From the NCBI GenBank assembly GCA_964016885.1, contig OZ024752.1, positions 20,212,001 to 20,276,000 of the forward strand: a stretch of 64,000 nucleotides of DNA, in the 5' to 3' direction. Every line of letters starts with the position of its first letter. The first letter of the stretch is position 1. Source of the DNA: Eledone cirrhosa. Lineage: Eukaryota. Of the stretch, positions 2,748 through 62,596 are shown in pieces. Position numbers and translations under genes: made by a program. The notes beneath the pieces are model-generated. The model was not told the DNA's origin and did no database searches. It saw nothing but the letters and a program-made list of their open reading frames with translations.

Positions 2748-4042
2748 CAGGGTGTGGACGATATTTGTTCGCAATTTTCAACTGCTAATTTTATGCAAAT
2801 TTTTTTTACTTCCGTTGTCACTCTTGTCTTCATAAAAACAGTGACTATATTTCCATTATTTATTTTAAGAATAATTGATTATGAATAATTTTGAACCTCC
2901 AAATTTGTGGACGAGACACGGAGTTCTTCTTGGAATCCACGCCGGGAGGACAAATAAGGAAATTTCAGACTTTCTCAGCGTCAGCAGGAGAATGGTGGAA
3001 AAGGTTAGAAAGGAATTGGAAGATTCAGGATTCGACTACGAAGGAACATCAGAGAGGAAAACACATGATCGACGATCTGACGCCTTCAGAACGCCCGAGT
3101 TCGTCGCTGAAGTTCAGGATATCATCAACAATGAACCTAGCAAGTCGGTGCGTGCCATTGCAAGGGAGAAAGGTGTGGATGAAAAGCTCATTAGGCTGGT
3201 GGTACATGAAGACATTCGCTACATTTCATACAAGATGAGGAAAAGACAATTTCTGTCAAAGGGGATGCAAGAAAAGCGACTGAAGCACGCAAAGAAGCTG
3301 ATCAACAAGTTGAAACACCCACTGGAGCCAGACATGCTGTGGTTTTTCTCCGACGAGAAAAACTTCTGCCAAGACCAGAAGATCAACTCCCAGAACAACA
3401 GGTGGCTCACTGTCTCATCCAAAGACGTGCCCAGAGTCATGCAGACAAAGTTTCCAGCGACAACATTGGTCATAGGTGTCGTCATGCCACCTCACTTCTT
3501 CCCTGAGGGCCTGAAGCTGAACACCGATGGCTACATCCGCGTTCTGAGCGAGGTAGTAAAGCCCTGGATCGACCAGGTAGCTGCAGGTAGGCCGTACGTG
3601 TGGCAGCAAGACTCAGCGCCCTGCCATACCAGCCGAAAGACCCAAGCCTGGCTGTCAGAGAACTTCGTCAACCACACTTCACCTGACATCTGGTCTCCCA
3701 GTTCGACTGACTACAACCCCCTTGACTTCTTTGTGTGGGGCGCAGTGGAATGAGACACCAACAGATCTAGCTGCAATACGAAAGACGATCTGAAGACCAG
3801 GATCACAAGTGCCTATAGGGGCCTAAGTTGGGGGGGGGGGACAGTGACGAAGGCCTGTAGCCGGTTCCGAGGCCGCCTTGAGGCCGTCATCAAAGCCAAT
3901 GGCGGGTTTATCGAGTGAGATCGAAAGAACAAGTCATGAAGACAAACTGACCCAAGTTTGATAAATATATCTTAAAAAATAAAACTACTGTGTTATTTTT
4001 TCCTAGACAGTAATCTTGCAAACAAATATCGTCGGCACCGTG
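2748..4042 (+). mobile_element. Tc1/mariner DD37D (maT) DNA transposon, near full length, transposase disrupted
   Basis: TA|CAGGGTGTGGACGATATTTGTT...AACAAATATCGTCGGCACCGTG|TA TIRs with TA TSD. ORF 2875-3753 has FSDEK, WQQDSAPCH and NPLD with 37 residues between the last two Asp; premature TGA. Confidence 0.92.
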
Positions 4043-6290: not shown

Positions 6291-6319
6291 TCAGCAACAT
6301 AATAATACAGCTCTTGTGT

Positions 6320-7898
6320 GTACTACATATAGGACATACTGTCTGTACTACATATAGGACATACTGTCTGTACTACACATAGGACATACCGTCTGTACTA
6401 CACATAGGACATACCGTCTGTACTACATATAGGACATACCGTCTGTACTACATATAGGACATACCGTCTGTACTACATATAGGACATACCGTCTGTACTA
6501 CACATAGGACATACTGTCTGTACTACACATAGGACATATTGTCTGTACTATATATAGGACATACCGTCTGTACTACACATAGGACATATTGTCTGTACTA
6601 TATATAGGACATACTGTCTGTACTACATATAGGACATACTGCCTGTACTACATATAGGACATACCGTCTGTACTACACATAGGACATATTGTCTGTACTA
6701 CATATAGAACATACTGTCTGTACTACATATAGAACATTGTCTGTACTACACATAGGACATACCGTCTGTACTACACATAGGACATACCGTCTGTACTACA
6801 CATAGGACATACCGTCTGTACTACACATAGGACATACCGTCTGTACTACATATAGGACATACTGTCTGTACTACATATAGGACATACTGTCTGTACTACA
6901 TATAGGACATACCGTCTGTACTACACATAAGACATACCGTCTGTACTACACATAAGACATACCGTCTACTACACATAGGACATACCGTCTGTACTACACA
7001 TAGGACATACCGTCTGTACTACACATAGGACATACCGTCTGTACTACACATAGGACATACCGTCTGTACTACACATAGGACATACCGTCTGTACTACACA
7101 TAGGACATACCGTCTGTACTACACATAGGACATACCGTCTGTACTACACATAGGACATACCGTCTGTACTACACATAGGACATACCGTCTGTACTACATA
7201 TAGGACATACCGTCTGTACTACATATAGGACATACCGTCTGTACTACATATAGGACATACCGTCTGTACTACATATAGGACATACCGTCTGTACTACATA
7301 TAGGACATACCGTCTGTACTACATATAGGACATACCGTCTGTACTACATATAGGACATACCGTCTGTACTACACATAGGACATACCGTCTGTACTACACA
7401 TAGGACATACCGTCTGTACTACACATAGGACATACCGTCTGTACTACACATAGGACATACCGTCTGTACTACACATAGGACATACCGTCTGTACTACACA
7501 TAGGACATACCGTCTGTACTACACATAGGACATACCGTCTGTACTACACATAGGACATACCGTCTGTACTACACATAGGACATACCGTCTGTACTACACA
7601 TAGGACATACCGTCTGTACTACATATAGGACATACCGTCTGTACTACATATAGGACATACCGTCTGTACTACATATAGGACATACTGTCTGTACTACATA
7701 TAGGACATACTGTCTGTACTACATATAGGACATACTGTCTGTACTACATATAGGACATACTGTCTGTACTACATATAGGACATACTGTCTGTACTACATA
7801 TAGGACATACTGTCTGTACTACATATAGGACATACTGTCTGTACTACATATAGGACATACTGTCTGTACTACACATAGGACATACTGTCTGTACTACA
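6320..7898. repeat. 25-bp minisatellite, roughly 60 copies
   Basis: Unit gtactacaYataggacatacYgtct, head to tail, no spacers. Confidence 0.97.
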
Positions 7899-7936
7899 CC
7901 CAAGGTTTAACAGTATGAATTGAATAAATAATATCT

Positions 7937-15119: not shown

Positions 15120-18100
15120 AATAACCTTCCTGCTCCCTACTATTCTTCACCCCCCTCCCCTATACATCGTATACGCGCCTGCTGGCTCTCTCTCAATCCC
15201 ATCCCTCTTCAAACATAAAATAAACTTGTTGCGGGGTGCGAAACTCAGAATTTGTCGACCCCTATTCTTGGCTACATCGCTCGCTCTTCTGTGTAATGTA
15301 ATGTACGAATCCTATTTTTCTTGTCTCTCCATCTTCACCGGTCCATTCATCTATCTGTATCACCAATCTTTTCTTTTTCAATGCTATTCGATAATTCTGT
15401 CTGATCGTTTAAAATAATCTTCATGTAATTTAAAATCCCATAATTCTTCTCTTATTACAGTTATATGCTCGTTCGATTATGGCCAAAATTTGTGGATTTT
15501 ATTTTATAACCTTCTCACTAACTACCCCAGATCCCTGAATGTAGGCACCTTAAAAGGCCGCTCTAACGAGGTTGTAGAAATGCTTGAATGTAAGGAGGTT
15601 GATGTTTGCTGTATTCAAGAAACCAGGTGGAGGGATGGGTCTGCTAGATTCATTGTGGGTAAAAAACGATGTTATAAGCTTTTCTGGGTGGAAAATGACA
15701 ATGGGCTGGGTGGATAGGAATCATGGTAGCAGAAAAGTGGGCAGATAAGATAATAGACGTAAATAGAGTGAACGACAGACTAATTAAAATAAGACTTGTC
15801 CTCAATAGAACTGCGTATGCACCCCAATCCGGACTGCCTGGCGTTATAAAAGACGGATTCTATGAGTCGTTTATGCTCATTACCTCCCAAATAACCAACA
15901 GTGACTATATAATTATTGCTGGCGACCTCAATAGTCACGTTGGACAACACTGTGATGGCTATGACGGAATCCATGGAGGCTATGGGTTTGGTACTAGAAA
16001 TGAGGAAGGCTCCAGAATCCTGGAATTCTGTGACGCAAATAACCTAACTATCTGTAACACTAACTTCAAAAAACGAGACAATCACTAGATCAGGGGAACA
16101 CGCCAGTCAGATAGATTATATCCTTACCAGAAGACGTGACAGAGTGTATGTCGTAAACACTAAATCCCTCCCCCATGAAGAATGCACCTCCCAACATAGC
16201 CTCATAGTTAGCGACCTCATAGTCAGGACGAGACATACCTGACAACAGAGGAGGACTGTCCTCAGGAGAAAAATATGGAAGTTAAAGGATGCTTTTGACA
16301 GTAAGGAAGAGCAATTAGAGTTGTACAATATAGAGGAATTCCTGAAAGCTAACCTGCTGAAGGCCACAGATGAAATCTGTGGCTGGAGCAGACCTATAGG
16401 CAGGAGGAGAGTAACATGGTGGTGGAATAGTAAGGTGGAGGAGTCGATCAAGGCCAAAAAGCAGGCTTGGAAAGTATGACAGGATGGGGGAAGTAGAGAA
16501 GACTATCAAGTGGCCAGGGGGGAAGCTAGGAGACAAGTGTACCTTGCAAGAAGGGAAGCAGAGGAAAGAAAGTTCAAGCATGTTCTACAACGCGAGGACC
16601 AAAAACGTGAGGTGTTCAGGATTGCTAGGCAATGTGTCAAGGAAAAATGATATTGTCGGGGAGAAGTGTGGAGATGATGGTGTACTGGCCATCACTGACG
16701 CTGATAAGAAGGTAGCTCGGAAGTGTCACTACGAAAGGCTACTAAATTAGAAGAATAAATGTGAGAAAGAAAGTCTCTCCCACATCGATCCAATAGAGGG
16801 ACCAGCAGTGCTAGTTGAAGGTAGTATAATAAGTAAGGCAATGAAAGATATGAAGACGGTGGGACACACTATGGTCACCCGGATAGTAAACCAAGTCATA
16901 CAGAATGGGGTCGTACCAAAGGACTGGCATAGCATCATCATCATTAACTGCTACAAGGGTAAAGGAGATGCCCTAGATAGGGGAAACTATAGAGGCATTA
17001 AATTAATTGACCAGGTCATGAAGGTCACAGAAAAAGTAATAGCGCAACTAATCAGAGAGCGAATTGATCTAGATGAAATGCAGTTTGGGTTTGTGTCAGG
17101 TAAAAGTATCACAGACGCTCTTTTCATTGTACGACAACTACAGGAGAAGTACCTAGCTAAAAGTAAACCTCTATACTTAGATTTCATTGACTTGGAGAAA
17201 GCCTTTGACCATTATCTGGTGGGCCCTTAGAAAACTAGGGTTGATGAATGGCTTGTGAGAGCTATACAAGCCATGTATAAAGAAACAGTCAGCAAGGTTA
17301 GAATTAACAACGAATATAGTAAAGAGTTTAGCGTAAAAGTTGGTGTTCATCAGGGCTCCGTCCTTAGCCCCCTCCTATTTATTATCGCCCTCCAAGCTAT
17401 AACGGAGGAGTTCAAGACCGGCTGTCCATGGGAATTTCTATACGCAGATGATCTAACGCTTATAACCGAATCAATGGCCGAACTAGAGAAGAAATTCCAA
17501 ACATGGAAGCATGGCCTAGAATCAAAAGGCCTTAAAATTAACTTGTCTAAGACTAAAGTTCTAATATGTAGAAAGGAGAATAGGGCACTGGTCCCATCTG
17601 GGAAATGGCCATGCTCAGTGTGTAGGAAAGGAGTAGGCAGAAACTCCATTTTATGTCCCAAATGTAAAGTATGGGTACATAAAAGATGTAGTGGGATCAC
17701 AGGTAAGCTAACTAAGAACATAGATTTTATCTGTGGCCGGTGCTCTGGTGCAATAAGTAACAGCAAATGCCCACAGAATACTAGCTCATTCCATTGCCCA
17801 GTTGATTTTATAGAAATAGTGGACACCTTCCGTTACCTGGATGACAAAATCAGCAGTGGTGTAAGGTGCTCCGAAAGTACTGTAGCTAGAGTCAGAATGG
17901 GATGGAAAAAGTTCAGAGAGCATATACCACTATTGGCCGCTAAAGGTTTCTCTCTAAAAATGAAAGGCAGGCTGTATGATGCCTGCATATGAACAGCGAT
18001 GTTACATGGCAGTGAGACATGGGCCTTGTGTGCAGAGGATCTATGCAGACTGGAGAGGAACGAAGCTTGCATGCTCCGTTGGATGTGTAATAGTAATATA

Positions 18101-18755
18101 CGTGAACGGCAAAGCATAAATGAACTAAGTGAGAAATTAGGAATAAGAGGGATCAGATGCTGTTTACTCGAGAGAAGACTATGTTGGTATGGTCACGTGA
18201 TGCGCATGAAAGACGACAGCTGTATAAAAAAGTGCAGGGCAATCAAAATAGACCGTAGCTACGGAGTAGGCAGACCTAGAAAAACCGCGGACAACTTGAT
18301 AAAATCCGACCTCACACACTTACACCTCCCCAAGACAATGTCACTGGACCGAGATCTTTGGCGCTACGCAGTAATACAGAAGACCCACCTTGCCTAAGTA
18401 CAAAGCGAAACCTAGTCAGTAGGCACCTCTTAACCAAAATACATCCCCGTCCCACTACCCCTACCCCCACCACCTCTTTCGATGTAAAGCTATGTTGGTA
18501 CCACAACATCCAGTCCTAAATAAATGAGGTCGTGTAGGTGTCACGACAAAAAAACACACAGTCCACGCTGTAATGTGGCCGTGTAGGTAACATGGTAAAA
18601 ACCTCCCAGTCCACACTGTAAACGTGGTTGGTGTTAGGAAGGGCATCCAGCCATAGAAAACCTGCCAGACAGTTCCGAGCAAGACAACCAATCTTGCCTC
18701 AAGTGGAATAATTCCCGTCCAGACCCATGCTAGCGTGGAAGATGGACGTTAAATT
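15120..18755 (+). mobile_element. Decayed RTE LINE (family A, PHD-containing) with 5' and 3' UTR
   Basis: APE and RT fragments with many stops and frameshifts; 5' UTR similar to the reverse complement of 47040-47230; 3' UTR similar to 55570-55850. Confidence 0.9.
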
Positions 18756-20265: not shown

Positions 20266-20727
20266 TAATACTTATACTTGCACAATTATTAATCTATATA
20301 GATATTTATATACTTATAACCTGTTGTAAGGTAATAAGATAAAATATACTTACAACCATAATTCTTCATATAATATAATTGATTATATATACAATATTAT
20401 AACTCATAATATAGGTAAATAAAAATAAATTCTGGAATAATATTCCAACATTCACCCAAATTGTTAATTCCTTTTAAATTAACGTAAATACAAGCTCTTC
20501 TTCCTTTTTCTTCTTCCTACATACATATATCCTAATTATTTAAATTCTGCATAGCATCTAAAATAACGGGGTTTTTTTCAGCCCTATACCTCAACCTCAT
20601 TTGCATACTCATCTTAATAATTTGAAATATCTGACTTTTCTTCTCTTATCCCTTCACTATCCAAGGAAAAGTTGAACCGTTAAGGTATCTTTCCTTGGTT
20701 ATGTCAAAATTTATAAAACAAACTTTG

Positions 20728-20788
20728 TATTTTATCTGATGAAAGTGTACCAAAGTTTTGGTACCCTTGAAATATATATAATAGAATA
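20728..20788 (+). ncRNA. Type I hammerhead ribozyme motif (family 1)
   Basis: tattttat-CTGATGA-aagtgtaccaa/ttggtaccctt-GAAA-tatata-TA-atagaata. Confidence 0.75.
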
Positions 20789-30918: not shown

Positions 30919-38995
<8,077 letters not shown>

Positions 38996-39304
38996 CAAAA
39001 TTAAGATAATCAATATTATGGGTGTCATGCCAGAAAGACATGCGCCATATCACCCACAAAATAAGCTCTAGGATTCTAACGAGTAGGTCCGAGCATTTTA
39101 TAATAACTAGAAATTGATTAACATATAAATAAACATGAATAATCATAGGAGATAATTTTTACAAGTGTGTAAGCACACATAGCTAGGTAGGTAACTAAAT
39201 AAAGTTGACCAGAACTTCTAAAATAGATACCTTATAAAAAAGATATAAAAATTATCTCCTGTGATTATTCATGTTTATTTATGCCTTAATCAATTTCTAG
39301 TTAT

Positions 39305-39483
39305 TATATACATACATATATATATATGTATATATATATATATACATACATATGTGTATATATATATATATGCATACATATATATATACATACATATATA
39401 TATACATACATATATATATACATACATATATATATACATACATATATATATACATACATACATACATATATATACATACATAC

Positions 39484-39532
<49 letters not shown>

Positions 39533-39849
39533 CATACATACACATATATATGTATATATATATATACATACATACATATATATATGTATATATATATATA
39601 CATACATATATATATGTATATATATGTATATAAATATATACATACATATATATATGTATATATATATATACATACATACATATATATATGTATATATATA
39701 TATACATACATACATACATATATATATGTATATATATATATACATACATATATATATATATATATATACATACATACATATATATATATGTATATATATA
39801 TATACATACATACATATATATATATGTATATATATATATACATACATAC

Positions 39850-39882
<33 letters not shown>

Positions 39883-40030
39883 TACATACATATATATATG
39901 TATATATATATACATACATACATATATATATATATGTATATATATATACATACATACATATATATATATATGTATATATATATACATACATACATATATA
40001 TATATATGTATATATATATACAATACATAC

Positions 40031-40061
<31 letters not shown>

Positions 40062-40130
40062 CATACATATATATATATATGTATATATATATATACATAC
40101 ATACATATATATATATATGTATATACATAT

Positions 40131-40165
<35 letters not shown>

Positions 40166-40208
40166 CATACATACATATATATATATATGTATATATATAT
40201 ATACATAC

Positions 40209-40240
<32 letters not shown>

Positions 40241-40264
40241 GTATATATATATATACATACATAC

Positions 40265-40296
<32 letters not shown>

Positions 40297-40320
40297 GTAT
40301 ATATATATATACATACATAC

Positions 40321-40369
<49 letters not shown>

Positions 40370-40418
40370 ATTATATATATACATATATATACATATATAT
40401 ATATATACATATATATAC

Positions 40419-40500
<82 letters not shown>

Positions 40501-40656
40501 CATATATATATATATATACATATATGTATATATACACATATATACATATATATACATATATACATATATGTATATATACACATATATACATATATATACA
40601 TATATACATATATATACATATATATATATATACATATATATATGTATATATATACA

Positions 40657-40691
<35 letters not shown>

Positions 40692-40694
40692 ACA

Positions 40695-40732
<38 letters not shown>

Positions 40733-40810
40733 CATATATACATATACACATATATATATGTATATATATACATATATACATATACACATATATATATGTA
40801 TATATATACA

Positions 40811-40845
<35 letters not shown>

Positions 40846-41421
40846 ACATATATACATATACACATATACATATATATATACATATACACATATACATATA
40901 TATACATATATATACATATACACATATACATATATATACATATACACACATATATATATACATATATATACATATATATACATATACACATATATACATA
41001 TACACATATATATATATATACATATATATACATATACATATATATATGTATATATATACATATACGTATATATATACATATACGTATATATATACATATA
41101 TGTATATATATACATATATATATATATATATGTATATATATACATATATATATATGTATATATATACATATATATATGTATATATATATACATATATATA
41201 TGTATATATATACATATATATATATGTATATATATACATATATATGTATATATATACATATATACATATACATATATATATATACATATATGTATATATA
41301 TACATATATATATATATATGTATATATATACATCTATAAATATATATATACTTATATACATATACCTATATACATATATATATATATAAATATATATACT
41401 TATATACATACTTATATACAT

Positions 41422-41485
<64 letters not shown>

Positions 41486-41510
41486 GTATATACATATATA
41501 TATACATAAA
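39305..41510. repeat. About 2.2-kb degenerate TA tract
   Basis: Direct inspection. Confidence 0.97.
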
Positions 41511-41519
41511 AGGATAAAA

Positions 41520-44267
41520 AAAAATATGAAGACGTAGCATCTCAGAGTTGCAACACTTAATGTTGGCACTCTAACAGGTAGATCTGGTGAAATAGCGGAG
41601 ATGCTGGAGAGAAGGCAGGTGGATGTGTGCTGCGTGCAAGAGGTGAGATGGAGAGGTGCCTCTGCGAGACTAGTCGCAGGCAAACATCTTAGCTATAAGC
41701 TTTCCTGGGTAGGTAAGGTTGATGGGTTGAGGGGTGTAGGCATTTTCCTGGCTGAGAGATGGATCAATAAGACAATAGAGGTAGTTTGAGTTAATAATCG
41801 AATAATTAAGCTTAGATTAGTTGTAGGCAGGAGACTAGTGACAATCATCTCTGCCTATGCTCCCCAAGCAGGCCTTAGTAAAGAAGAGAAAGACTGCTTT
41901 TACGAGCAACTTTTACAGACAGTCACAATGACAGAGGATAGAGACATCGTTATGCTAGCAGGGGACTTCAATGGTCATGTTGGACAGCTCCAGGATGGTT
42001 ACACTGGGGTACATTGTGGGCACGGTTACAGCTCAAGAAATGAAGAAGGACTGAGACTTCTTGAATTTTGTGATGCAAATGCACTAACCATTTGCAACAC
42101 TAACTTCCAGATGCCTACCAACCACCTAATAACCTACAAATCAGGCGAGCACATAAGCCAGATTGACTTCTTACTAGTTAGGCAGCGGGACAGGCAGATG
42201 GTGTCAAATACTAAGGCATACTCTGGGGAAGAATGTACCCCACAGCATAGGTTAGTCGTTAGTGATATCTCAGTAAGCAAGAGATGGAATGAGACATACA
42301 GGAAGGTGTGGAGAAGAAAGGTCAAATTTCGGAAAGCCCTTCAAGATGTGTATGGCGAAAAAGAAGAAGATTTAGAAACGTATGACATAGATAATAACTG
42401 GAATTTCTTATGTGACAAGTTACTGCAGGCTACTGATGAAACTTGTGGCTGGAGCAGAGCTTCAACCAGACAGAGATTGACTTGGTGGTGGAACAGCACA
42501 GTAGATAGGGCCATGAGAGACAAAAGACTAGCATGGAAGGCTTAGAAAAAGGTTGGGAGTAGAGAAGGATATACAGCCACTAAGAGAGAGGCTAGACGTC
42601 AGGTGTACTTAGCACACAGGGAGGCTGAGAGTAGGAGGTTTGCCAATGTTCTGCAACGGGAAGATCAAAGGCGTGCGGTGTTCCACATTGCAAGGCAGTG
42701 TGTCAATGCAAATCAGGACGTTGTTGGAGATAAATGTGTCCGGAATGATGCCGGTGTACTTAGTGTCACGAATGATCAGAAAAAGGAGGCCTGGAAATGT
42801 CATTATGAGAGACTCATGAATGTGGAGAACGAATGGGAGAGAGAAAAATTACCCTCAGTAGATCTGACAGAGGGACCAGCTATTGAGACTGACGAATATA
42901 GGGTCCAAGAGGTAATTAAGGAAATGAAAAATGGTAAGGCTGCTAGACCGTCAGGGATAGTTGCTGAGATGCTGAAGGCATCAGGGGACGTAGGCACTAA
43001 ACTGGTTGCATGCATCATCAATCAGGCTATATATGACGGTGTCATACCCAAAGACTGGTGCAGCAGTATTCTCATAAATTGCTATAAATGTAAAGGGGAT
43101 GCTCTGGAGAGGAGCAATTATAGGGGTATAAAATTGATGGATCAGGTTATGACAGGTTATGAGGAATGGCTTGTGAGGACAGTGCAGACTTTGTACAGAG
43201 GTGCTGTCAGTAAAGTCAGGGTAGGAATGGAGTTTAGTGAGGAATTCCAGATACAAATAGGAATACATCAAGGTTTGGTCCTCAGCTCGCTCTTGTTCAC
43301 TATAGTCTTCCAAGCCATAACAGAGGAGTTTAAGACTGGCTGTCAATGGGAACTTCTCTATGCTGACGATCTGGTTCTTATAGCAGAATCAGTAGAGGAG
43401 CTAGAGAATAAATTCTAGCTATGGAAACAGCAGTTGGAATTAAGAGGACTGAGAGTGAACCTAGCTAAGACAAAAGTATTGATGAGTAGAAAAGAGGACA
43501 AAACTCTGATTCCGTCAGGGAAATGGCCATGTTCAATATGCAGAAAAGGAACTGGCATAAATCCTATAAAATGCACACAGTGCAGATCCTGGGTACACAA
43601 GAGATATAGTGTGATAGCAGGCAAACTAACAGGTAGGGAGAAATACGTATGCAGTAGATGCACATGGAAATTAGACAGTAGAAGTCGCATTGATAGACAC
43701 ACTTTTCAAATGCAGGTGGGTGCTATAGAAGTGGTGGATAGCTTCCGGTACCTAGGAGATCAGATTAGCATGGGAGAGGGGTGTTCCGAGGCCTTAGTAT
43801 CTAGAATAAGGACTGGCTGGAAGAAGTTTAGGGAGCTGCTTTTTCTGCTGACAAATAAGGGTTTCTCCCTGCATACGAAAGGCCGGTTATATGATGCCTG
43901 TGTGAGGTGTGCGATGCTGAATGGTAGTGAGACATGGGTGCCAACTGCAGAGGATATGCGATGGCTGGAGAGAAATGAGGCAAGCATGCTCCGTTGGATG
44001 TGCAGTGTCAATGTGCGTGAACGATCCAGCATGAATGTGTTGAGAGATAAACTGTGTCTGAGAGGGATAGAATGTAGTGTACGGGAGAGGAGACTGAGGT
44101 GATATGGACATGTGATAGCATGGAGGATGACCGATGGGTGAAGAAGTGCAAGGAATAGCCAGTTGAAGGAAGACGTGGTAGAGGTAGACCACAAAAAACA
44201 TGGGCGGAGGTAGTGAGAACAGACCTCAGATTGCTGAAGCTCATGGTGGAGATGACGCAGGACCGTG
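41520..44267 (+). mobile_element. Decayed RTE (family B), extreme 3' end missing
   Basis: APE (GDFNGHVG), RT (ELLYADD) and Cys-rich finger; stops and an internal deletion. Confidence 0.9.
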
Positions 44268-47230
44268 CTGATTTTGTCACCCAAGTAACGGAAGGTGTCC
44301 ATTATTTCTATAGAACCATCTGTGCAATGGAATGAGCTAGTATTCTGTGGGCACTTGCTGCTACTTATTGCACCAGAGCACCGGACACATATAAAATCTA
44401 TATTCTTAATTAGCTTACCTGTGATCCCACTACATCTTTTATGCACCCATACTTTGCATTTGGGACATAAAATGGAGTTCCTGCCTACTCCTTTCCTACA
44501 CACTGAGCATGGCCATTTCCCGGATGGGACCGGTGCCCTATTTTCCTTCCTACAAACCAGAAGTTTAGTCTTAGACAGGTTAATTTTAAGGCATTTTGAT
44601 TCTAGGCCATGCTTCCATGTTTGGAATTTCTTCTCTAGTTCAGCCATTGATTCAGCTATGAGCGTTAGATCATCTGCGTATAGGAGTTCCCATGGGCAGC
44701 CGGTCTTGAACTCCACTGTTATAGCCTGAAAGGCAATAATAAATAGTAGGGGGCTAAGAACGGAGCCCTGATGAACATCAACTTTTACGCTAAACTCTTC
44801 ACTATATTCGTTGTTAATTCTAACCTTGCTGACTGTTTCTTTATACATGGCTTGTATAGCTCTCACAAGCCATTCATCAACACCTAGTTTTCTAAGAGCC
44901 CACCAGATAATGGAACGGGGGACTCTGTCAAAGGCTTTCTCCAAGTCGACAAAAGCTAAGTATAGGTGTTTACTTTTAGCTAGGTACTTCTCCTGTCGTT
45001 GTCGTACAATGAAAAGAGCGTATGTGATACTTTTACCTGACACAAACCCAAACTGCATTTCATCTAGATCAATTCGCTCTCTGATTAGTTGTGCTATTAC
45101 TTTTTCTGTGACCTTCATGACCTGGTCAATTAATTTAATGCCTCTATAGTTTCCCCTATCTAGGGCATCTCCTTTACCCTTGTAGCAGTTAATGATGATG
45201 CTGCTACGCCAGTCCTTCGGAACAACCCCATTCTGTATGACTTGGTTTACTATCCGGGTGACCATGGTGTGTCCCACCGTTCCAGAAGCTTTCAGCATTT
45301 CAATAACTATTTCCGAAGGCTCAGCCGCCTTACCCATCTTCATATCTTTGATTGCCTTACTTATTATACTACCTTCGACTAACACTGCTGGTCCCTCTAT
45401 TAGATCGATGTGGGGGAGACTGTCTTTCTCCCATTTATTCTCCTCATTTAGTAGCCTTTCGTAGTGACACTTCCAAGCTACCTTTTTATCAGCATCAGTG
45501 ATAGCAAATACACCATCATCATTAAGGACACACTTCTCCCCGACAATATCACAGTTTTCCTTGACACATTGCCTAGCAATCCTGAACACCTCACGTTTTT
45601 GGTCCTCGCGTTGTAGAACATGCTTGAACTTTCTTTCCTCTGATTCCCTTCTTGCGAAGTACACTTGTCTCCTAGCTTCCCTCATGGCCACTTGATAGTC
45701 TTCTCTACTTCTCCCATCCCGCCATACTTTCCAAGCCTGCTTTTTGGCCTTAATTGACTCCTCCACCTTACTGTTCCACCACCATGTCACTCTCCTCCTG
45801 CCTATAGGCCTGCTCCAGCCACAGACTTCATCTGCCGCCATCAGCAGGTTTGCTTTCAGGAATTCCCACTGTTCCTCTATATTGTACGACTCTAATTGCT
45901 CTTCCTTACTGTCGAAAGCATCAAGTAATATGCTTTTAAATTCATTACTGGCTGTGGGGTCCTTTAGCTTCCATATTTTTCTCCTGAGGATAGTCCTCTT
46001 CTGTTGTCGAGTACGTCTCGTCCTGACTATGAGGTGGCTAATTATGAGTCTATGTTGGGAAGTGCATTCTTCATGGGGGAGGGATTTAGTGTTTACAACA
46101 GACACTCTGTCACGTCTTCTGGTAAGGATATAATCTACCTGGCTGGTATGTTCCCCTGATCTGTAGGTGATCAAGTGATTGTCTCGTTTTTTGAAGTTAG
46201 TGTTACTGATAGTTAGGTTATTTGCGTCACAGAATTCCAGGATTCTGGAGCCTTCTTCATTTCTAGTACTAAACCCATAGCCTCCATGGATTCCGTCATA
46301 GCCATCACAATGTTGTCCAACATGACCATTTAGGTCGCCAGCAATAATTATATAGTCACTGTCGGTTATTTGGGAGGTAGTGAGCATCAGTGTCTCATAG
46401 AATCTGTCTTTTATAGCGCCAGGCAGTCCGGATTGGGGTGCGTACACAGATATTACTGTCACAGTAGTTCTATTTAGAACAAGTCTTATTTTAATTATTC
46501 TGTCATTCACTCTATTTACGTCTATTATCTTATCCACCCATTTTTCTGCTAACATGATTCCTACCCCACACAGCCCATTGCCATTTCCCACCCAGTAAAG
46601 CTTATAGCATCGTTTTTTACCCACAATGAATCTAGCCGACCCGCCCCTCCACCTGGTCTCTTGGATACAGCAAACATCAACCTCCTTACGTTCAAGCATT
46701 TCTACAACCTCGTTAGAGTGGCCTTTTAAGGTGCCTACATTCATGGTACCAACTCTGAAGTTTTGGATTGTGTTTGGTGGGTGGGGTGCGGGGAGGGGGG
46801 AGGGGGATGGGGTTGGGATTATGTTGGCCATACGCGGCCGAAACAAAGCAGCATGAGGTGAATTTGTCGTTATCTTTGGCATTGTCTCCGAGTGTCCAGA
46901 TTCTTCAGACTCTCCAGAAATTCCTTAGTCCATCCATCATATCCATAAAAGCAACCAGGATAAGTGATAGCATAGGCCGCTGACTTATGATTGGTCCAAA
47001 TAATAATGGTGGAGAGTGGGGGCGGGTGGGAGGGGTATGGGGTAGTTAGCGAGGAGAAGGTTTTAAATAAAGCATATAACAGTAACAAGCGATATACTGG
47101 GATTTTAAAATACACAATATTATTTAGAACAGCCAGACAGAATTATAGAATAGCATTGAGAAAGTAGGATTGGATTCTGGGCGATTATACAGATATATGG
47201 ATGAATGGGGAGACAAGAAGAAAATGGTAT
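44268..47230 (-). mobile_element. RTE (family A) with open APE-RT-PHD frame, 3'-truncated
   Basis: ORF from 46882 open through FRYLGDKIS, then running into the antisense of the neighbouring element; 5' UTR to about 47230. Confidence 0.9.
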
Positions 47231-53792: not shown

Positions 53793-53868
53793 CATATATA
53801 TATACATATATATAGATATATATATATATACATATATATACATATATATATACATATATATCTATATA
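53011..53868. repeat. Degenerate TA tract
   Basis: Direct inspection. Confidence 0.95.
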
Positions 53869-53869
53869 C

Positions 53870-55870
53870 GGGCCTTCGGAAATAGTTGCTGAGATGCTGA
53901 AGGCATCTGGCACGGTGGGACACACCATGGTCACCCGCATAGTTAACCAAGTCGTACAGAATGGGGTTGTTCCGAAGGACTGGCATAGCAGCATCATCGT
54001 TAACTGTTATAAGGGTAAAGGAGACGCCCTAGATAGGAGTAACTATAGAGGCATTAAATTAATCGACCAGGTCATGAAGGTCACGGAAAAAGTAATAGCG
54101 CAACTAATCAGAGAGAGAATTGATCTAGATGAAATGCAGTTCGGGTTTGTGTCAGGCAAAAGTACCACAGACGCTCTTTTCATTGTACGACAACTACAGG
54201 AGAAGTACCTAGCTAAAGGTAAACCCCTCTACTTAGCTTTTGTCGACTTGGAGAAAGCCTTCGACAGAGTCCCCCGTTCCATTATCTGGTGGGCCCTTAG
54301 AAAACTAGGTGTCGACGAATGGCTTGTGAGAGCTATACAAGCCATGTATAAAGAAACAGTCAGCAAGGTTAGAATTAACAACGAATATAGTGAAGAGTTT
54401 AGCGTAAAAGCTGGCGTCCATCAGGGCTCTGTTCTCAGCCCCCTACTATTTATTATTGCCCTTCAGGCTATAACAGAGGAGTTCAAGACCGGCTGCCCAT
54501 GGGAACTCCTATACGCAGACGACCTGACACTCATAGCTGAATCAATGGCCGAGCTAGAGAAGAAATTCCAAACATGGAAGCACGGCCTAGAATCAAAAGG
54601 CCTTAAAATTAACCTGGCTAAGACTAAAGTTCTAGTTTGTAGGAAAGAAAATAAGGCGGCAGTCCCTTCTGGCAAATGGTCGTGCTCAGTGTGTAGGAAA
54701 GGCGTAGGTAGAAACTCCATTTTATGTCCTAAATGCAAAGTATGGGTGCATAAAAGATGTAGTGGGAACACAGGTAAGCTAACTAAGAACATAGATTTTA
54801 CATGTGGCCCGTGCTCTGGTGCAATAAGTAGCAGCAAGTGCCCACAAAATACTAGCTCTTTCAATTGCGCAGAGGGTTCTATAGAAATAGTGGACAGTTT
54901 CCGTTACCTGGGTGATAAAATCAGCAGTGGGGGAGGGTGCTCTGAAAGTACAGTAGCTAGAGTCAGAACTGGTTGGAAAAAGTTCAGAGAGCTTATACCA
55001 CTATTAGCTGCTAAAGGGTTCTCCCTAAAAATGAAAGGCAGGTTGTACGATGCCTGCATACGAACAGCAATGTTGCATGGCAGTGAGACCTGGGCATTGT
55101 GTGCAGAGGATATACGCAGACTAGAGAGGAACGAAGCTTGCATGCTCCGCTGGATGTGTAACAGTAATATACGTGAACGGCAACGCATAAACGAACTAAG
55201 GAAAAAATTAGAAATAAGAGGGATCAGATGTTGTTTACTCGAGAGAAGGCTACGTTGGTATGGACACGTGATGCGCATGAAAGTCGATAGCTGTATAACA
55301 AAGTGCAGGGCAATAAAGATAGACGGTAGCCACGGAATAGGCAGACCTAGAAAAACCTGGGACGAGCTGATAAACTCCGACCTTACACACTTACACCTCT
55401 CCAAGACAATGTCACTGGACCGAGACCTTTGGCGGTACTCAGTAACAGAGAAGACCCGCCTTACCTAAATACATAGTAAAACCTACTACAGCCAGTAGGC
55501 ATCTCTAACAAAATACCCCCCCCCCCCCCCGTCCCACCACCCCCACCCCATCCACGCCACCCCGTTCTATGTAAAGTTGTGTTGGTGCCACACCATCCAG
55601 GCCGAAACAAATGAGATCGTGTAGGTGTCACGAAAAAAAAACACACAGTCCACGCTGTAATGTGGCCGTGTAGGCAACACGGTAAAAACCTCCCAGACCC
55701 ACACTGTAAATGTGGTTGGTGTTAGGAAGGGCATCCAACTGTAGAAAACCTGCCAGACAGTCCTATGCGAGCAAGACAATCACTCTTGCCTCAAGTGGGA
55801 CTACACCCGTCCAAACCCATGCAAGCGTGGAACACGGACGTTAAACGTTGATGATGATGATGATGATGAT
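53870..55870 (+). mobile_element. Young 5'-truncated RTE family A (ORF 53894-55468 open)
   Basis: RT motifs, PHD finger, 3' UTR and (GAT)n tail; flanked by TA tracts. Confidence 0.93.
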
Positions 55871-56917
<1,047 letters not shown>

Positions 56918-58757
56918 TTAACTGTTATAAGGGTAAAGGAGACGCCCTAGATAGGAGTAACTATAGAGGCATTAAATTAATCGACCAGGTCATGAAGGTC
57001 ACGGAAAAAGTAATAGCGCAACTAATCAGAGAGAGAATTGACCTAGATGAAATGCAGTTCGGGTTTGTGTCAGGCAAAAGCACCACAGACGCTCTTTTCA
57101 TAGTACGACAACTACAGGAGAAGTACCTAGCTAATGGTAAACCCCTCTACTTAGCTTTTGTCGACCTGGAGAAAGCCTTCGACAGAGTCCCCCGCTCCAT
57201 TATCTGGTGGGCTCTTAGAAAACTAGGCGTTGACGAATGGCTTGTGAGGGCTATACAAGCCATGTATAAAGAAACAGTCAGCAAGGTTAGAATTAACAAC
57301 GAATATAGTGAAGAGTTTAGCGTAAAAGTTGGCGTCCATCAGGGCTCTGTTCTCAGCCCCCTACTATTTATTATTGCCCTTCAGGCTATAACAGAGGAGT
57401 TCAAGACAGGCTGCCCATGGGAACTCCTATACGCAGACGACCTGACACTCATAGCGGAATCAATGGCCGAGCTAGAGAAGAAATTCCAAACATGGAAGCA
57501 CGGCCTAGAGTCAAAAGGACTTAAAATTAACCTGGCTAAGACCAAAGTTCTAGTTTGTAGGAAAGAAAACAAGGCGGCGGTCCCTTCTGGGAAATGGTCG
57601 TGCTCGGTATGTAGGAAAGGCGTAGGTAGAAACTCCATCTTATGTCCTAAATGCAAAGTATGGGTGCATAAAAGATGTAGTGGGATCACAGGTAAGCTAA
57701 CTAAGAACATAGACTTTACATGTGGCCGGTGTTCTGGTGCAATAAGTAGCAGCAAGTGCCCACAAAATACTAGCTCTTTCAATTGCGCAGAGGGTTCTAT
57801 AGAAATAGTGGACAGCTTCCGTTACCTGGGCGATAAAATCAGCAGTGGGGGAGGGTGCTCTGAAAGTACTGTAGCTAGAGTCAGAACTGGTTGGAAAAAG
57901 TTCAGAGAGCTTATACCACTATTAGCTGCTAAAGGGTTCTCCCTAAAAATGAAAGGCAGGTTGTACGATGCCTGCATACGAACAGCAATGTTGCATGGTA
58001 GTGAGACCTGGGCATTGTGTGCAGAGGATATACGCAGACTAGAGAGGAACGAAGCTTGCATGCTCCGCTGGATGTGTAACAGTAATATACGTGAACGGCA
58101 AAGCATAAACGAACTAAGGAAAAAATTAGAGATAAGAGGGATCAGATGTTGTTTACTCGAGAGAAGGCTGCGTTGGTATGGACACGTGATGCGCATGAAA
58201 GTCGATAGCTGTATTACAAAGTGCAGGGCAATAAAGATAGACGGTAGCCACGGAATAGGCAGACCTAGAAAAACATGGGATGAGCTGATAAACTCCGACC
58301 TCACACACTTACACCTCTCCAAGACAATGTCACTGGACCGAGACCTTTGGCGGTACTCAGTAACAGAGAAGACCCGCCTTGCCAGTAGGCATCTCTATCA
58401 AAATACACCCCGTCCCGCCACCACCCCCACCCCATCCACACCAACCCGTTCTATGTAAAGTTATGTTGGTGCCGCGCCATCCAGGCCGAAACAAATGAGA
58501 TCGTGTAGGTGTCACGACAAAAAAACACACAGTCCACGCTGTAATGTGGCCGTGTAGGCAACACGGTAAAAACCTCCCAGACCCACACTGTAAATGTGGT
58601 TGGTGTTAGGAAGGGCATCCAACTGTAGAAAACCTGCCAGACAGTCCTATGCGAGCAAGACAATCACTCTTGCCTCAAGTGGGACTACCCCCGTCCAAAC
58701 CCATGCAAGCGTGGAACACGGACGTTAAACGTTGATGATGATGATGATGATGATGAT
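56918..58757 (+). mobile_element. Young 5'-truncated RTE family A (ORF 56992-58458 open)
   Basis: Highly similar to 53870-55870, with a different 5' truncation point and scattered substitutions. Confidence 0.93.
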
Positions 58758-58897
58758 ATATATATACACATATATATATACATATATATATACATATATA
58801 TATACATATATATATACATATATATACATATATATATATATATATACATATATATATACATATATATATACATATATATATACATATATATATATAC

Positions 58898-58928
<31 letters not shown>

Positions 58929-59273
58929 TATATATCTACATATATATACATATATATATACATATATATACATATATATATATACATATATATATACATA
59001 TATATAAAAACAAATAACGAAACGAAATTAAATTTCGTTTCGCTTCTAACTCACTTTTGTATGACAGACGCTTAAACAATTAAGTTAAAGTGTACATCTA
59101 CATATGTATACGGAAGTATTAGTATGCATATAAATACACACATGTATCCATATGTACATGTACTGAGTTTTTCACTAGACACTTTACAGTGAGTGTCAGC
59201 TAGTCTGTATGTAACCACACAGACGGACCGGGTTTTAGAGTCATACGAGTTTTCAAGGAAACACATTTCCTCT

Positions 59274-59369
59274 ATTCTCCAGAGGGCCAGACAGGAATAT
59301 TGGACTAGTTTCGATGTTATTACATCTCATCAGCAATATTTACCCATCTTCCGGCTTCTCTGGAGAATT
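59274..59369 (-). ncRNA. Canonical type I hammerhead ribozyme with long extended stem I
   Basis: Reverse complement aatattg-CTGATGA-gatgt aata acatc-GAAA-cta-GTC-caatatt, closed distally by attctccagag/ctctggagaat. Confidence 0.88.
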
Positions 59370-59467
59370 GTAAATACATATATATATATATATACAAATA
59401 TATATATATACAAATATACATATATATATACATATATATACATATATATACATATACATATATATAC

Positions 59468-59514
<47 letters not shown>

Positions 59515-59695
59515 CATATACATACATATACATATACATACATATACATATATATACATACATATACATATACATACATATACATATACATATATATACA
59601 TACATATATATATACATATATATACATATACATATATATACATATATATACATATATATATACATATAGACATATATATACATATATATATACAT

Positions 59696-59766
59696 CTCAA
59701 GTGGGAAAACCCCCGTCCAAACCCATGCAAGCGTGGAACACGGACGCTAAACCTGATGATGATGAT
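59696..59766 (+). mobile_element. About 70-bp 3' tip of RTE family A
   Basis: ctcaagtggg...aacccatgcaagcgtggaacacggacg followed by (GAT)n. Confidence 0.85.
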
Positions 59767-59878
59767 ATATACATATATATATATATACATATATATATAC
59801 ATATATATATACATATATATATACATATATATATACATATATACATATATATACATATATATATATATATACATATAT

Positions 59879-59913
<35 letters not shown>

Positions 59914-59949
59914 CATATATACATATATATATATATACATATATATAGT

Positions 59950-62045
59950 ATTAGTTATACTATTTATGGTTATGTAAACACAAAACCTTAAGCAGTTGTA
60001 AGTATTTTACACACACCCTAAATAGTGGTAGGCAGTAATGTATTACTACCTTATTACCAGTAAGTTAAGTAGCTCAATGTAAAAACATCAGATGATTTAC
60101 AGAGCAGTTATATGAAATATAAGAATCAAAGAACTGTTCAAAACATTATTGTGCTTACAGCTGTTTCCTCCAAACCGAGGTTTGGATTCTTCGGAGCAAT
60201 TTATTAATGCATGGACAGTTATATGACCTCCTTTTCAGCCGAGAGACATACCAATACATATTCAAACATTGATACATATTCAAACATTGTGGGTCAACAT
60301 TCATTACAGAATTTAGAGTGGCAGTACACACTTCGAGATTACATTTATATTAATAGGTACAATCAAAAATCAAAGATATAGGTTAAAGTACATCATGAAG
60401 ATAAGTGGTTATATAGTGCAAATGTTATATGTGTGGCACGCATGTGCGTCTTGTTTATATAGTGTGGCAGAGAGATATTTGTGGTAGAGGCACTTAGGTA
60501 GGTAAATAAGAGTGTTAGGTTGGTAGATCTGGTGGCAAAGTCTTTATATGATTGATATAGTCTGTGTGTGGAGAAATATTATAAGCATTAAAGATAGTGC
60601 AAGCATTAAAAGTGTTATAAGTATTGGAGATGCACAGCGCAGGGATGTCAAGTAATTCATGTACTTCGGCATTTTCATGGTCAAGGGAGTGTATATTTCG
60701 ATTATATGCCTTTCACATAATCCACGACAATCCAGTTAGAGATCGTAGTCTGGTGTTCTTTAGTTCGATACAGGAGGTTGTTACGTTTCGAGAAACGCCA
60801 TTGAATACCGGAAGTGTGTGTGTGGCTAAGGGGAGTTAATGCATGCGGGGAGGTAACTCTGGGGTTTCTATATCTAGCCATTAAAATGTGTCCCAATATA
60901 GACCCTAAATTCTATGGTGAGGTGCACCTTCCAAGAGAGACTTTTAAAGCATAAAGTGTACTAACTATAGAGTAGTTTAACTAAATTATGCTGAAGGTGA
61001 TCATATTATTATTAAGGTGGATTAACCCATCTTAAGGTGCTACAAATGGAAATTATAGATGATGAGCGAGGATTCTAAATTAATGATCTCTGTGGTTGTA
61101 GTCTGCTCATATGACCAGGCGCGGTGATTGCAGGATTGCTTCAGGACCCAATGATCTCTGGTAAGATCTGGGTCATCGCTTGCTACATTGGATGTCGAAA
61201 GATAATCGTCCCCAGGCAGGCCAAAGGTCAATCCGCAGTCCTCGCGACCCCTCTCTGACCGTCAGATCATCCGTATACGTACAACCCGCACGGCAGTTGC
61301 ATTGCATTCACTCACTGCGCTCAGCAGCCCGGTCCTACTGGTCAACAGCGCTACTCGATTAAATCATTTTACATCTGTCTAAGGAAGGTGTTTCCTCTGC
61401 CCAACACCATCCAACCGATCAATTCATGCTCAAATTACCCTTAGAGCGGTGTAGTGCCGTCCAAGTGGGTGGATGTTGTCACACCTGCCGTAGAGGTATA
61501 AATGGGTATTTTCCCTGCGAAGGGTTCCAGAGGGATGTCGTTGTTTGTGTTATAATGGATCAGCTAGTGTTGGGTATGTAGTATAGGGTGTGTCTCTGGT
61601 GTTTGATGCTAGATGTGGTGTTAGGTTCCAGTCCGACATTGCTATATATAGGGCTTAAAGTTTTGGAAGGAATGTCTGAGGCGGTGCTGGCAAGTTGCAA
61701 ACACCTCAGATTTTTTGTTAAGTAGGTTACGGTTGGAGAAGATAATATTGTGTGTCTCTAGTATACAGAGGTTACAGAATTTATTAGGTGGTTTGTACGA
61801 GGTCGCGCTGCCTACCACTTCCCATTTGAGTGTGTATGGTTTATTTTTAGATTTTAGATAGTGTATGTAGCTAGAAAGTGAGGTGGAGTTGGCTAGGCTG
61901 TGCTTTTTGAACGAGTGGATGTGCGAGTTATATCTGATTTTGAAGCAGTTAGAAGTGGAGCCTACATAGGTTTCTGAAGAGTTATTAGTCGTGACTGTGC
62001 ATGAGTATATGACATCCTTGGTTAGGCATTTTTTATCTATATTTC
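59950..62045 (-). mobile_element. Penelope-like (Naiad-type) 3' part: open GIY-YIG frame at 61642-62040, about 1.5-kb 3' region, hammerhead
   Basis: Manual translation IDKKCLTKDVIYSCTV...TYVGSTSNCFKIRYNSH...KWEVV...FCNLCILE...LLNKKSEVFATCQHR; hammerhead at 60152-60198. Confidence 0.8.
60152..60198 (-). ncRNA. Hammerhead motif with CCGAAGA core
   Basis: Reverse complement tgct-CCGAAGA-a tccaaacc tc ggtttgga g-GAAA-cagct-GTA-agca. Confidence 0.62.
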
Positions 62046-62049
62046 ATAC

Positions 62050-62082
<33 letters not shown>

Positions 62083-62213
62083 AAAGAGAAAATTGAGAGT
62101 GTATAACACTCAACTTATCAGATAGGCAGTATATGGTTAGCTCAATGTCTGAAGACAGAGCCGTAATACAATTAACAACAAAGAGCGCTTAGAACATAGG
62201 TATATCTTTAATT

Positions 62214-62257
62214 GCTGACAATGTTTCGTCCACACTAAAAGTGGGACTCTTCAGAGC
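62214..62257 (-). ncRNA. Hammerhead motif
   Basis: Reverse complement gct-CTGAAGA-gtcc cac tttta gtg t ggac-GAAA-catt-GTC-agc. Confidence 0.72.
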
Positions 62258-62596
62258 TTAAAGAGTAGATACAGAGTATAGAAGCATTAACAAATCCAAA
62301 ACAGAAGAATATAATGTGGGGATATCATAAGGTGGGAGGAATTTAAAGTATATTTCATGTACAAGATAAGGAATAAAGGATAAAAAATAAAAGATAAAAA
62401 ATAAAAAATAAAAAATAAAATCAAGCAAAGGTAGGGTTAGCCCAGAGACAGTATATATATATATATATATACACACATATATACACATACACACACACGC
62501 ACATAACACCGGTCACCCAAAATCCGCACTATATCCGCGTAAATTTTGGGTGACCGGTGTTATGTGTGTGTGTGTGTGTGTGTATGTGTATATATT

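Follow-up and report, generated by a model that had tools for sequence, protein, structure and literature searches.

Non-LTR retrozymes of corals, mussels and the axolotl consist of non-coding, low-GC tandem units of 150–450 bp, each with one type I hammerhead ribozyme, and both their cleavage and their circular RNAs have been demonstrated (Cervera and de la Pena 2020, PMC7229834). The accessible text of that report proposes the circles as templates for reverse transcription and Penelope elements as helpers. It also describes the axolotl motif HHR_Amex1, in which helix III is a single pair with a palindromic loop; a helix III this short gives weak cleavage as a monomer and good cleavage as a dimer. 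Vertebrate non-LTR retrozymes occur as monomers, dimers and multimers and are linked to Penelope elements through co-occurrence and pLTR homology, and in the available text of the preprint their lone copies are regarded as offspring unable to transpose (Li, Clavereau and Pollet 2026, 10.64898/2026.07.22.740005). The EN+ Penelope-like elements, such as Poseidon of Anolis, use two internal start sites, target AT-rich or (TA)n DNA, leave tandem and inverted 5'-truncated copies and carry a hammerhead in their repeat (PMC11167929; PMC8557442). These tandem and inverted copies have a tail (PMC8557442), which is the stretch between the two internal reverse-transcription start sites (PMC11167929) and has a published length of 30–40 nt. 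For the anole element, the one Penelope element studied in vitro, uncut linear RNA is the main template (PMC11167929). In schistosome Sm-alpha and newt satellite 2, a promoter lies upstream of the hammerhead in each unit, reportedly of the polymerase III kind in the schistosome and of the snRNA-type polymerase II kind in the newt, so that a lone copy can no longer propagate (PMC6765202; PMC2220036).

A repeat family of Eledone cirrhosa resembles the coral, mussel and axolotl retrozymes in its unit composition and its single type I hammerhead, HHR_Amex1 in its helix III, and the vertebrate retrozymes in its monomers, dimers and multimers and in a Penelope link. With the Penelope-like elements it has in common two putative internal start sites, the (TA)n targets and the tandem and inverted truncated copies with a hammerhead, and with Sm-alpha and satellite 2 a promoter-like block upstream of the hammerhead in each unit. 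It differs from the metazoan retrozymes in its slightly longer unit of 469 bp and in features that we did not find described in the accessible text of PMC7229834: two opposed arms with two fixed end sites, putative editing marks and a candidate promoter. Its Penelope link comes from the insertion footprint, with no homologous pLTR found. Compared with the EN+ elements, the unit has no ORF, the tail is ~70 nt long, an arm may run for up to 15 or more rounds, and the template appears to be circular and edited rather than linear. Its promoter-like box is of the host U6/MRP type and absent from U1 and U2, in contrast to the schistosome and newt promoters.

The copy studied here, referred to as the island (Table 1), lies in a 64,000-nucleotide stretch of contig OZ024752.1 (assembly GCA_964016885.1, positions 20,212,001 to 20,276,000), the whole of which we call the window. 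Judged against its relatives, the island is an ordinary clipped member of the retrozyme family: it holds 371 of the 469 bases of the unit, namely positions 398–469 followed by 1–299 (numbered from the cleavage site), and over 367 nt it matches units on another chromosome with 100% identity. TA homology leaves its low end uncertain to within a few bases. The 98 bases that it lacks, unit positions 300–397, include a promoter-like box (338–349) and a TATA-like motif (380–387), and only one hammerhead cleavage site is left. An earlier note, made from the letters of the window, had placed a stand-alone, non-coding island of about 370 bp at 59008..59375, with TA tracts on both sides, and had taken it for a single inserted monomer of a non-autonomous ribozyme retroelement. 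The size, the TA tracts, the non-coding character (no stop-free stretch of the unit exceeds 72 codons) and the membership of a retroelement family hold, whereas the limits needed correction and the copy proved to be part of a tandem unit instead of a whole, free-standing monomer.

Table 1. Features of the island, of the rest of the window and of related families at other examined loci. Positions are those of the window unless a locus is named.
Feature	Position	Strand	Basis or remark
5'-truncated single-arm retrozyme copy, 0.79 unit	59004..59374	minus	comparison with 469-bp units
Type I hammerhead	59296..59340	minus	motif search, folding; covariation across related families
CUGAUGA core	59333–59327	minus	
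GAAA	59312–59309	minus	
GUC	59305–59303	minus	predicted cut between 59303 and 59302
Stem I, 7 bp	59340–59334 with 59302–59296	minus	
Stem I extension	59274..59369	minus	folding; includes 11-bp distal helix 59369–59359 with 59284–59274
'Short' arm-end site, unit 225–231	59072..59078	minus	putative first reverse-transcription start site; internal in island
~70-nt 'tail' between the two end sites	59004..59077	minus	folding, subfamily comparison
13-bp hairpin of the tail	59046–59014	minus	
T5 run of the tail	59010–59006	minus	
'Long' arm-end site, unit 295–299	59004..59008	minus	3' end of island, running into (TA)n
(TA)n-rich target tract, 3' side	58758..59003		behind (GAT)n end of LINE
(TA)n-rich tract, 5' side	59375..59696		in place of unit positions 300–397
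Truncated two-armed insertion of a young Penelope-like family	59945–62043		97–99% identical to L132 (intact, 832-aa)
Separate small element with well-formed hammerhead (core 62254)	62082–62460	minus	ends in (TA)n; unrelated to island
Hammerhead-like core	20736	plus	1.5 kb behind Penelope-like ORF end
U6-type box, antisense to the hammerhead at 20736	20596–20607	minus	in abundant repeat
Hammerhead-like cores, inverted pair	22610 and 22702	minus and plus	
Hammerhead-like core	24462	plus	
Hammerhead-like core	48150	minus	
LINE family copies	57001–58757, 59697–59767, 53816–55465, 16751–18394, 41790–46924		RT and PHD finger, (GAT)n ends
Transposase-like ORF	2875–3750		by eye
Long low-complexity ORF	600–1817	minus	
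25-bp tandem array, 63 copies	6319–7899		
TA-rich tract, 10.6 kb	30919–41508		
Family D	L229, L173, L074, L250		box present
Family E, 310-bp	L067:6100–9300		
Family F	L212, L061, L247		box present
Family G	L232:340–520		box present
Family H	L317		box present

With its single cleavage site, the island is unable to release a circle alone, and since the predicted promoter is lost as well, it is probably a dead end, unless it is read through from the Penelope arm that ends at 59945 and points at it on the same strand; this orientation makes such read-through possible. Two consecutive hammerhead units, the mark of an active copy in the available text of the 2026 preprint, are absent from the island and present in many sister arrays. 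The island had also been proposed as the best candidate for activity in the window. Given the 98 missing bases with the predicted promoter, the single cleavage site and the short helix III, this claim had to be abandoned, and the multi-unit sister arrays would be the candidates instead.

The hammerhead itself is a real motif. The CUGAUGA, GAAA and GUC elements reported from the letters were all located on the minus strand, and folding reproduced the 7-bp stem I, the 11-bp distal helix and the 5-bp stem II, which carries an AAUA loop. The island copy has the type I elements, with a CUGANGA core, GAAA, NUH and stems I and II, but the description 'fully canonical' goes too far: helix III consists of one A-U pair and the palindromic loop CUAG, inside the palindrome ACUAGU, and the two or more pairs expected for monomeric cleavage are absent. 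In Rfam, the HH9 model matched with 31.8 bits (E 2.8e-5), which is under its gathering score of 52, and there were zero matches within the window at the gathering threshold. The island as a whole folded with a z-score of -7.5, its ribozyme region with one of -4.3. Across 13 aligned sequences, taken from subfamilies A–C and the distant families D and F, both sides had changed in 15 of 35 pairs and in 7 of 14 distal-helix pairs, and 90.5% of the alignment cells pair, compared with 36–44% with slid partners, controls that overstate the case somewhat because the aligned sequences are kin to one another and the window sequence was the basis for the structure. The predicted energy of the open monomer fold is +0.2 kcal/mol versus -7.2 for an alternative fold, and that of the palindrome self-duplex is -6.2. 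Since helix III has one pair and a palindromic loop, the hammerhead probably works best as a dimer, by analogy with the axolotl motif.

Sister copies of the island form head-to-tail arrays with a 469-bp period, which were recovered by the genome search for tandem copies that had been recommended as a check. The search returned 1,590 candidates, with 99–100% identity for the top 40 scored. The exact 31-nt core occurs 3,096 times genome-wide (control, 0), 74 further matches have a varied stem II, and the 36 clusters among the first 100 core matches listed give an estimate of ~1,100 insertions. Besides the 469-bp unit, there are subfamilies with units of 465 and 467 bp; hammerhead cores are intact in 152 of 157 cases, and A-type units diverge by a mean of 0.7% from their own majority. 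The unit has a GC content of 36.7%, folds as a circle with a z-score of -8.7 and shows no LTR layout, and no second ribozyme core was found on its antisense strand. The 469-bp repeat is a young, non-coding tandem retrozyme family with one type I hammerhead per unit. Units follow each other without a gap, and the arrays reach at least 21 of them. L211, which has 21 or more units, shows a clean higher-order repeat of 9 units; an array of 30 or more units lies near the start of contig C1 (L321–L343), and at L354:1–930 a tandem U1 snRNA array has an insertion of subfamily B at its border. Contigs of four sequencing runs contain the family, and those of about unit length (499 and 497 nt) are explained equally well by circles and by collapsed tandem DNA. 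A pattern search for related hammerheads returned only one further subfamily and two lone motifs.

Insertion anatomy was tallied in 78 insertions, drawn from 10-kb stretches around the top 40 matches, 20 consecutive loci on one chromosome and 16 subfamily C loci; the window copy lies outside this tally, and L238 and L239 are duplicates of one insertion. Two opposed arms joined at their 5' ends make up 55 of the 78 insertions, and 44 of these 55 have one end at ~225–234 and the other at ~295–303. Outer ends fall at two sites ~70 nt apart (124 of 131) and run into TA-rich DNA (114 of 131). The arm junctions mostly show an overlap of 0–4 nt or short fillers. TA sequence also on the 5' side, as in the island, was seen in 9 of 23 single-arm copies. 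In non-LTR retrozymes, target-site duplications are longer than 4 bp when present; here the ends fall in (TA)n tracts, and at the island one candidate duplication, the LINE-end piece at 59697–59767, differs from 58670–58757 at several bases and was taken as a separate insertion. The tail of ~70 nt, longer than the published Penelope length, is the most conserved stretch among subfamilies A, B and C. The family thus has the layout of Penelope insertions, with tandem and inverted 5'-truncated copies, a tail and an AT-rich target, and a Penelope-type enzyme very probably performs the insertion.

The young Penelope-like family with an 832-aa protein, intact and autonomous, served as an internal control with the same layout: its two opposed arms stop in (TA)n, at distances of 47 and 211 nt from the hammerhead of that element. 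Relatives of this protein carry PF26215 and PF01541, which we take to be Penelope domains, and Pfam and PDB searches with the 832-aa protein itself gave no match. The family has many intact ORFs genome-wide, a hammerhead core variant CCGAAGA and a tail of 164 nt. As the possible partner of the island, beside which one copy lies, it was rejected on account of its different ends and its lack of similarity to the unit. At L070:1631–2258, one retrozyme arm ends one base past the cut site, into (TA)n, as if primed on cut RNA. At L084:4727–5598, the 5' end of a retrozyme arm adjoins, with no gap, 81 nt of another TA-anchored repeat; this may be a hybrid two-arm insertion and could then hint at a shared enzyme.

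As to the template, 65 arms out of 68 run through at least one cleavage site, so a cut linear monomer is not the usual template, and a circle or an uncut multimer has to be considered instead. Variants were sorted in 107 insertions under a strict rule, by which a fixed variant had to occur in every copy within an insertion and in no other insertion. Fixed variants comprised 12 A>G versus 1 T>C, whereas partial variants (13 versus 18) and single variants (35 versus 35) showed no bias. Under a looser rule (fixed throughout an insertion and not shared with any of the six insertions nearest to it), A>G was found at 29 sites in 19 insertions and T>C at 4 sites in 4 insertions (p 0.0014 by insertion), with one insertion supplying 8 of the 29 sites. 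A 5' U or A precedes 25 of these 29 sites, compared with 97 of 147 unit adenosines, and the sites are only slightly more paired than average (0.68 versus 0.59), a difference that tells nothing either way. A-to-I editing by ADAR enzymes leaves A>G changes of this kind, and we read them as its marks. At L243, both full units carry the same 12 A>G changes, and the edited block occurs three times with a 465-nt spacing; the edits destroy the box and the TATA-like motif, which makes this locus an unlikely source array. A>G changes fixed throughout insertions, and the 12 repeated in successive units of L243, suggest that one edited RNA circle served as the template and was copied round, although any fixed variant could instead have been inherited from an unsampled source array.

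The same retrozyme and the same Penelope-type enzyme could also work from an uncut multimeric linear transcript, with arrays growing by re-copying of arrays and unequal DNA exchange and with circles having no role in mobility. This would explain why variants that recur within an insertion without reaching all of its units are frequent (33 versus 1.5 expected) and free of A>G bias, why partial variants stand in register between both arms at L068, L090 and L075, and why L211 contains a clean 9-unit duplication; uncut RNA as the main substrate of the anole element agrees with it (PMC11167929). Higher-order array periods of 9, 6 and 7 units were observed. One monomer circle cannot yield such periods or partial variants, so multimers or later DNA exchange must also act. 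On the other hand, identical A>G sets in successive units of L243 need one molecule read repeatedly, A>G fixed in both arms, as in 10 of the 19 insertions, needs one molecule read more than once, and L243 with its edited promoter region would be a poor source array. We consider the purely linear route unlikely, and the idea that the template is always multimeric was given up after the editing test because of the A>G excess. Copying of an edited circle and the multimer or exchange routes probably both contribute.

A block kept between subfamilies A–C and family D (64% identical) consists of TATGCAAATTAG at unit position 338, followed by the TATA-like motif. The box, with the consensus TATG[CG][AT]AAT[TG]AG, is identical to the -78 element of host U6 and MRP genes, the consensus having been derived from the host genes after the resemblance to the unit was noticed. 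It lies at -77 to -79 in the MRP gene, in the best of 8 U6atac loci and in 12 of the 20 best U6 loci, and was found in none of 12 weaker U6 matches, 24 U1 loci and 20 U2 loci. Shuffled units contained the box in 14 of 20,000 cases. The box followed by CTGANGA occurs 8,804 times, versus 3 in the control, and in at least five sequence families. The distance from box to TATA is 42–44 nt in families A–D, F and H, 48 nt in G and 47–49 nt in the host genes; the full unit therefore has the host box, with the TATA-like motif at the host distance in family G only. Since the spacing is 4–6 nt below that of the host genes except in family G, transcription of the unit by RNA polymerase III is likely. The notion that the long end is simply a polymerase III stop was weakened by family D, whose ends lie 6–8 nt beyond its own T-runs. 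Host U6, U6atac and MRP genes at L271–L273, L291 and L292 have an octamer-like box at -78 and TATA at -30, and no octamer-like box was present within 400 nt of U1 and U2. This layout of a -78 box and TATA could be useful for expression cassettes in Eledone cirrhosa.

These data can be arranged into a cycle of four steps. The U6-type box and TATA-like motif (unit 338–387) would first drive transcription from ~412–416, probably by RNA polymerase III, and leaky T4/T5 stops would yield multimers; each unit has three T-runs, and the need to read through all of them counts against this step, which on balance we still favour by a modest degree. Neighbouring hammerheads would then pair via the palindromic helix III and cut out monomers, which a host ligase would close into circles, some of them A-to-I edited, and we hold this second step with good confidence. 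In the third, a Penelope protein dimer would nick both (TA)n strands, the DNA ends would prime at two RNA sites ~70 nt apart, both copies would travel round the unit (as many as 15 or more turns in the arrays seen), and the two would join 5'-to-5' at 0–4 nt of microhomology. Finally, arrays would be reshaped by DNA exchange, or some may arise from multimeric RNA. At the island, copying would have ended after 371 nt, with the promoter lost and one cut site kept. That the island is a 5'-truncated copy, pasted into (TA)n by a Penelope-like reverse transcriptase-endonuclease and probably derived from circular RNA, seems fairly likely to us. The complete picture, a self-transcribing circular-RNA retroelement with the host's U6-type polymerase III promoter in each unit, an edited circle and a Penelope dimer whose two reverse transcriptases roll round that one circle from the two ends of a (TA)n break, is put forward tentatively, at slightly under even odds. 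If true, the genome would hold a direct record of rolling-circle retrotransposition, common to at least five hammerhead families, and the 469-nt unit would be a cassette for Penelope-driven multi-copy insertion.

The Penelope footprint at the ends could also be expected of a plain pLTR fragment of an ORF-bearing Penelope element, and at L078 and L079 the retrozyme copy directly adjoins an old Penelope ORF at its 3' end and shares its orientation. These two neighbours, however, belong to different families, and L078 represents an insertion into an older element, as shown by the empty homologous site in L242. Units also join each other directly in long arrays. Many copies have Penelope fragments no more than 5 kb away, none of which recurs at a fixed place; no ORF recurs beside the 78 insertions, and an ORF for a reverse transcriptase with GIY-YIG endonuclease is absent from the unit. 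Among 24 other Penelope 3' regions of the examined loci, no shared tail was found, except in two that contain the retrozyme itself, and no Penelope family in these loci has a matching tail or hammerhead. The preference of the earlier note for a retrozyme over a pLTR fragment is borne out by these copies, and the pLTR reading is highly improbable; the unit may nevertheless have descended from a pLTR. A DNA satellite with the hammerhead as a passenger, spread by DNA rolling circles, recombination or the neighbouring LINE family, is just as improbable, since long arrays with higher-order periods and a LINE end 250 bp from the island are outweighed by the fixed ends, the two opposed arms, the strand-biased A>G and the compensatory ribozyme changes, and the LINE ends in (GAT)n, without a two-arm or fixed-end layout here.

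Movement of animal retrozymes by means of a circle and a Penelope enzyme was proposed in PMC7229834, with no demonstration found in its accessible text, and the family described here gives genomic evidence for both halves of this route. It also names exact sites that can be tested, namely two priming positions, the (TA)n target and the promoter box. In the main texts searched, with few subscription journals among them, we found no description of retrozyme insertions with two arms, of arrays with editing marks or of a U6-type retrozyme promoter; the supplements of PMC7229834 and of the 2026 preprint may contain information on the layout and the promoter.

Several other repeats accompany the family. 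The LINE copies of the window, with their reverse transcriptase and PHD finger, presumably belong to an RTE-like family. The examined loci contain at least five further families of hammerhead repeats, D–H, and family D, like the retrozyme, ends at two sites, in its case ~59 nt apart and in (TA)n.
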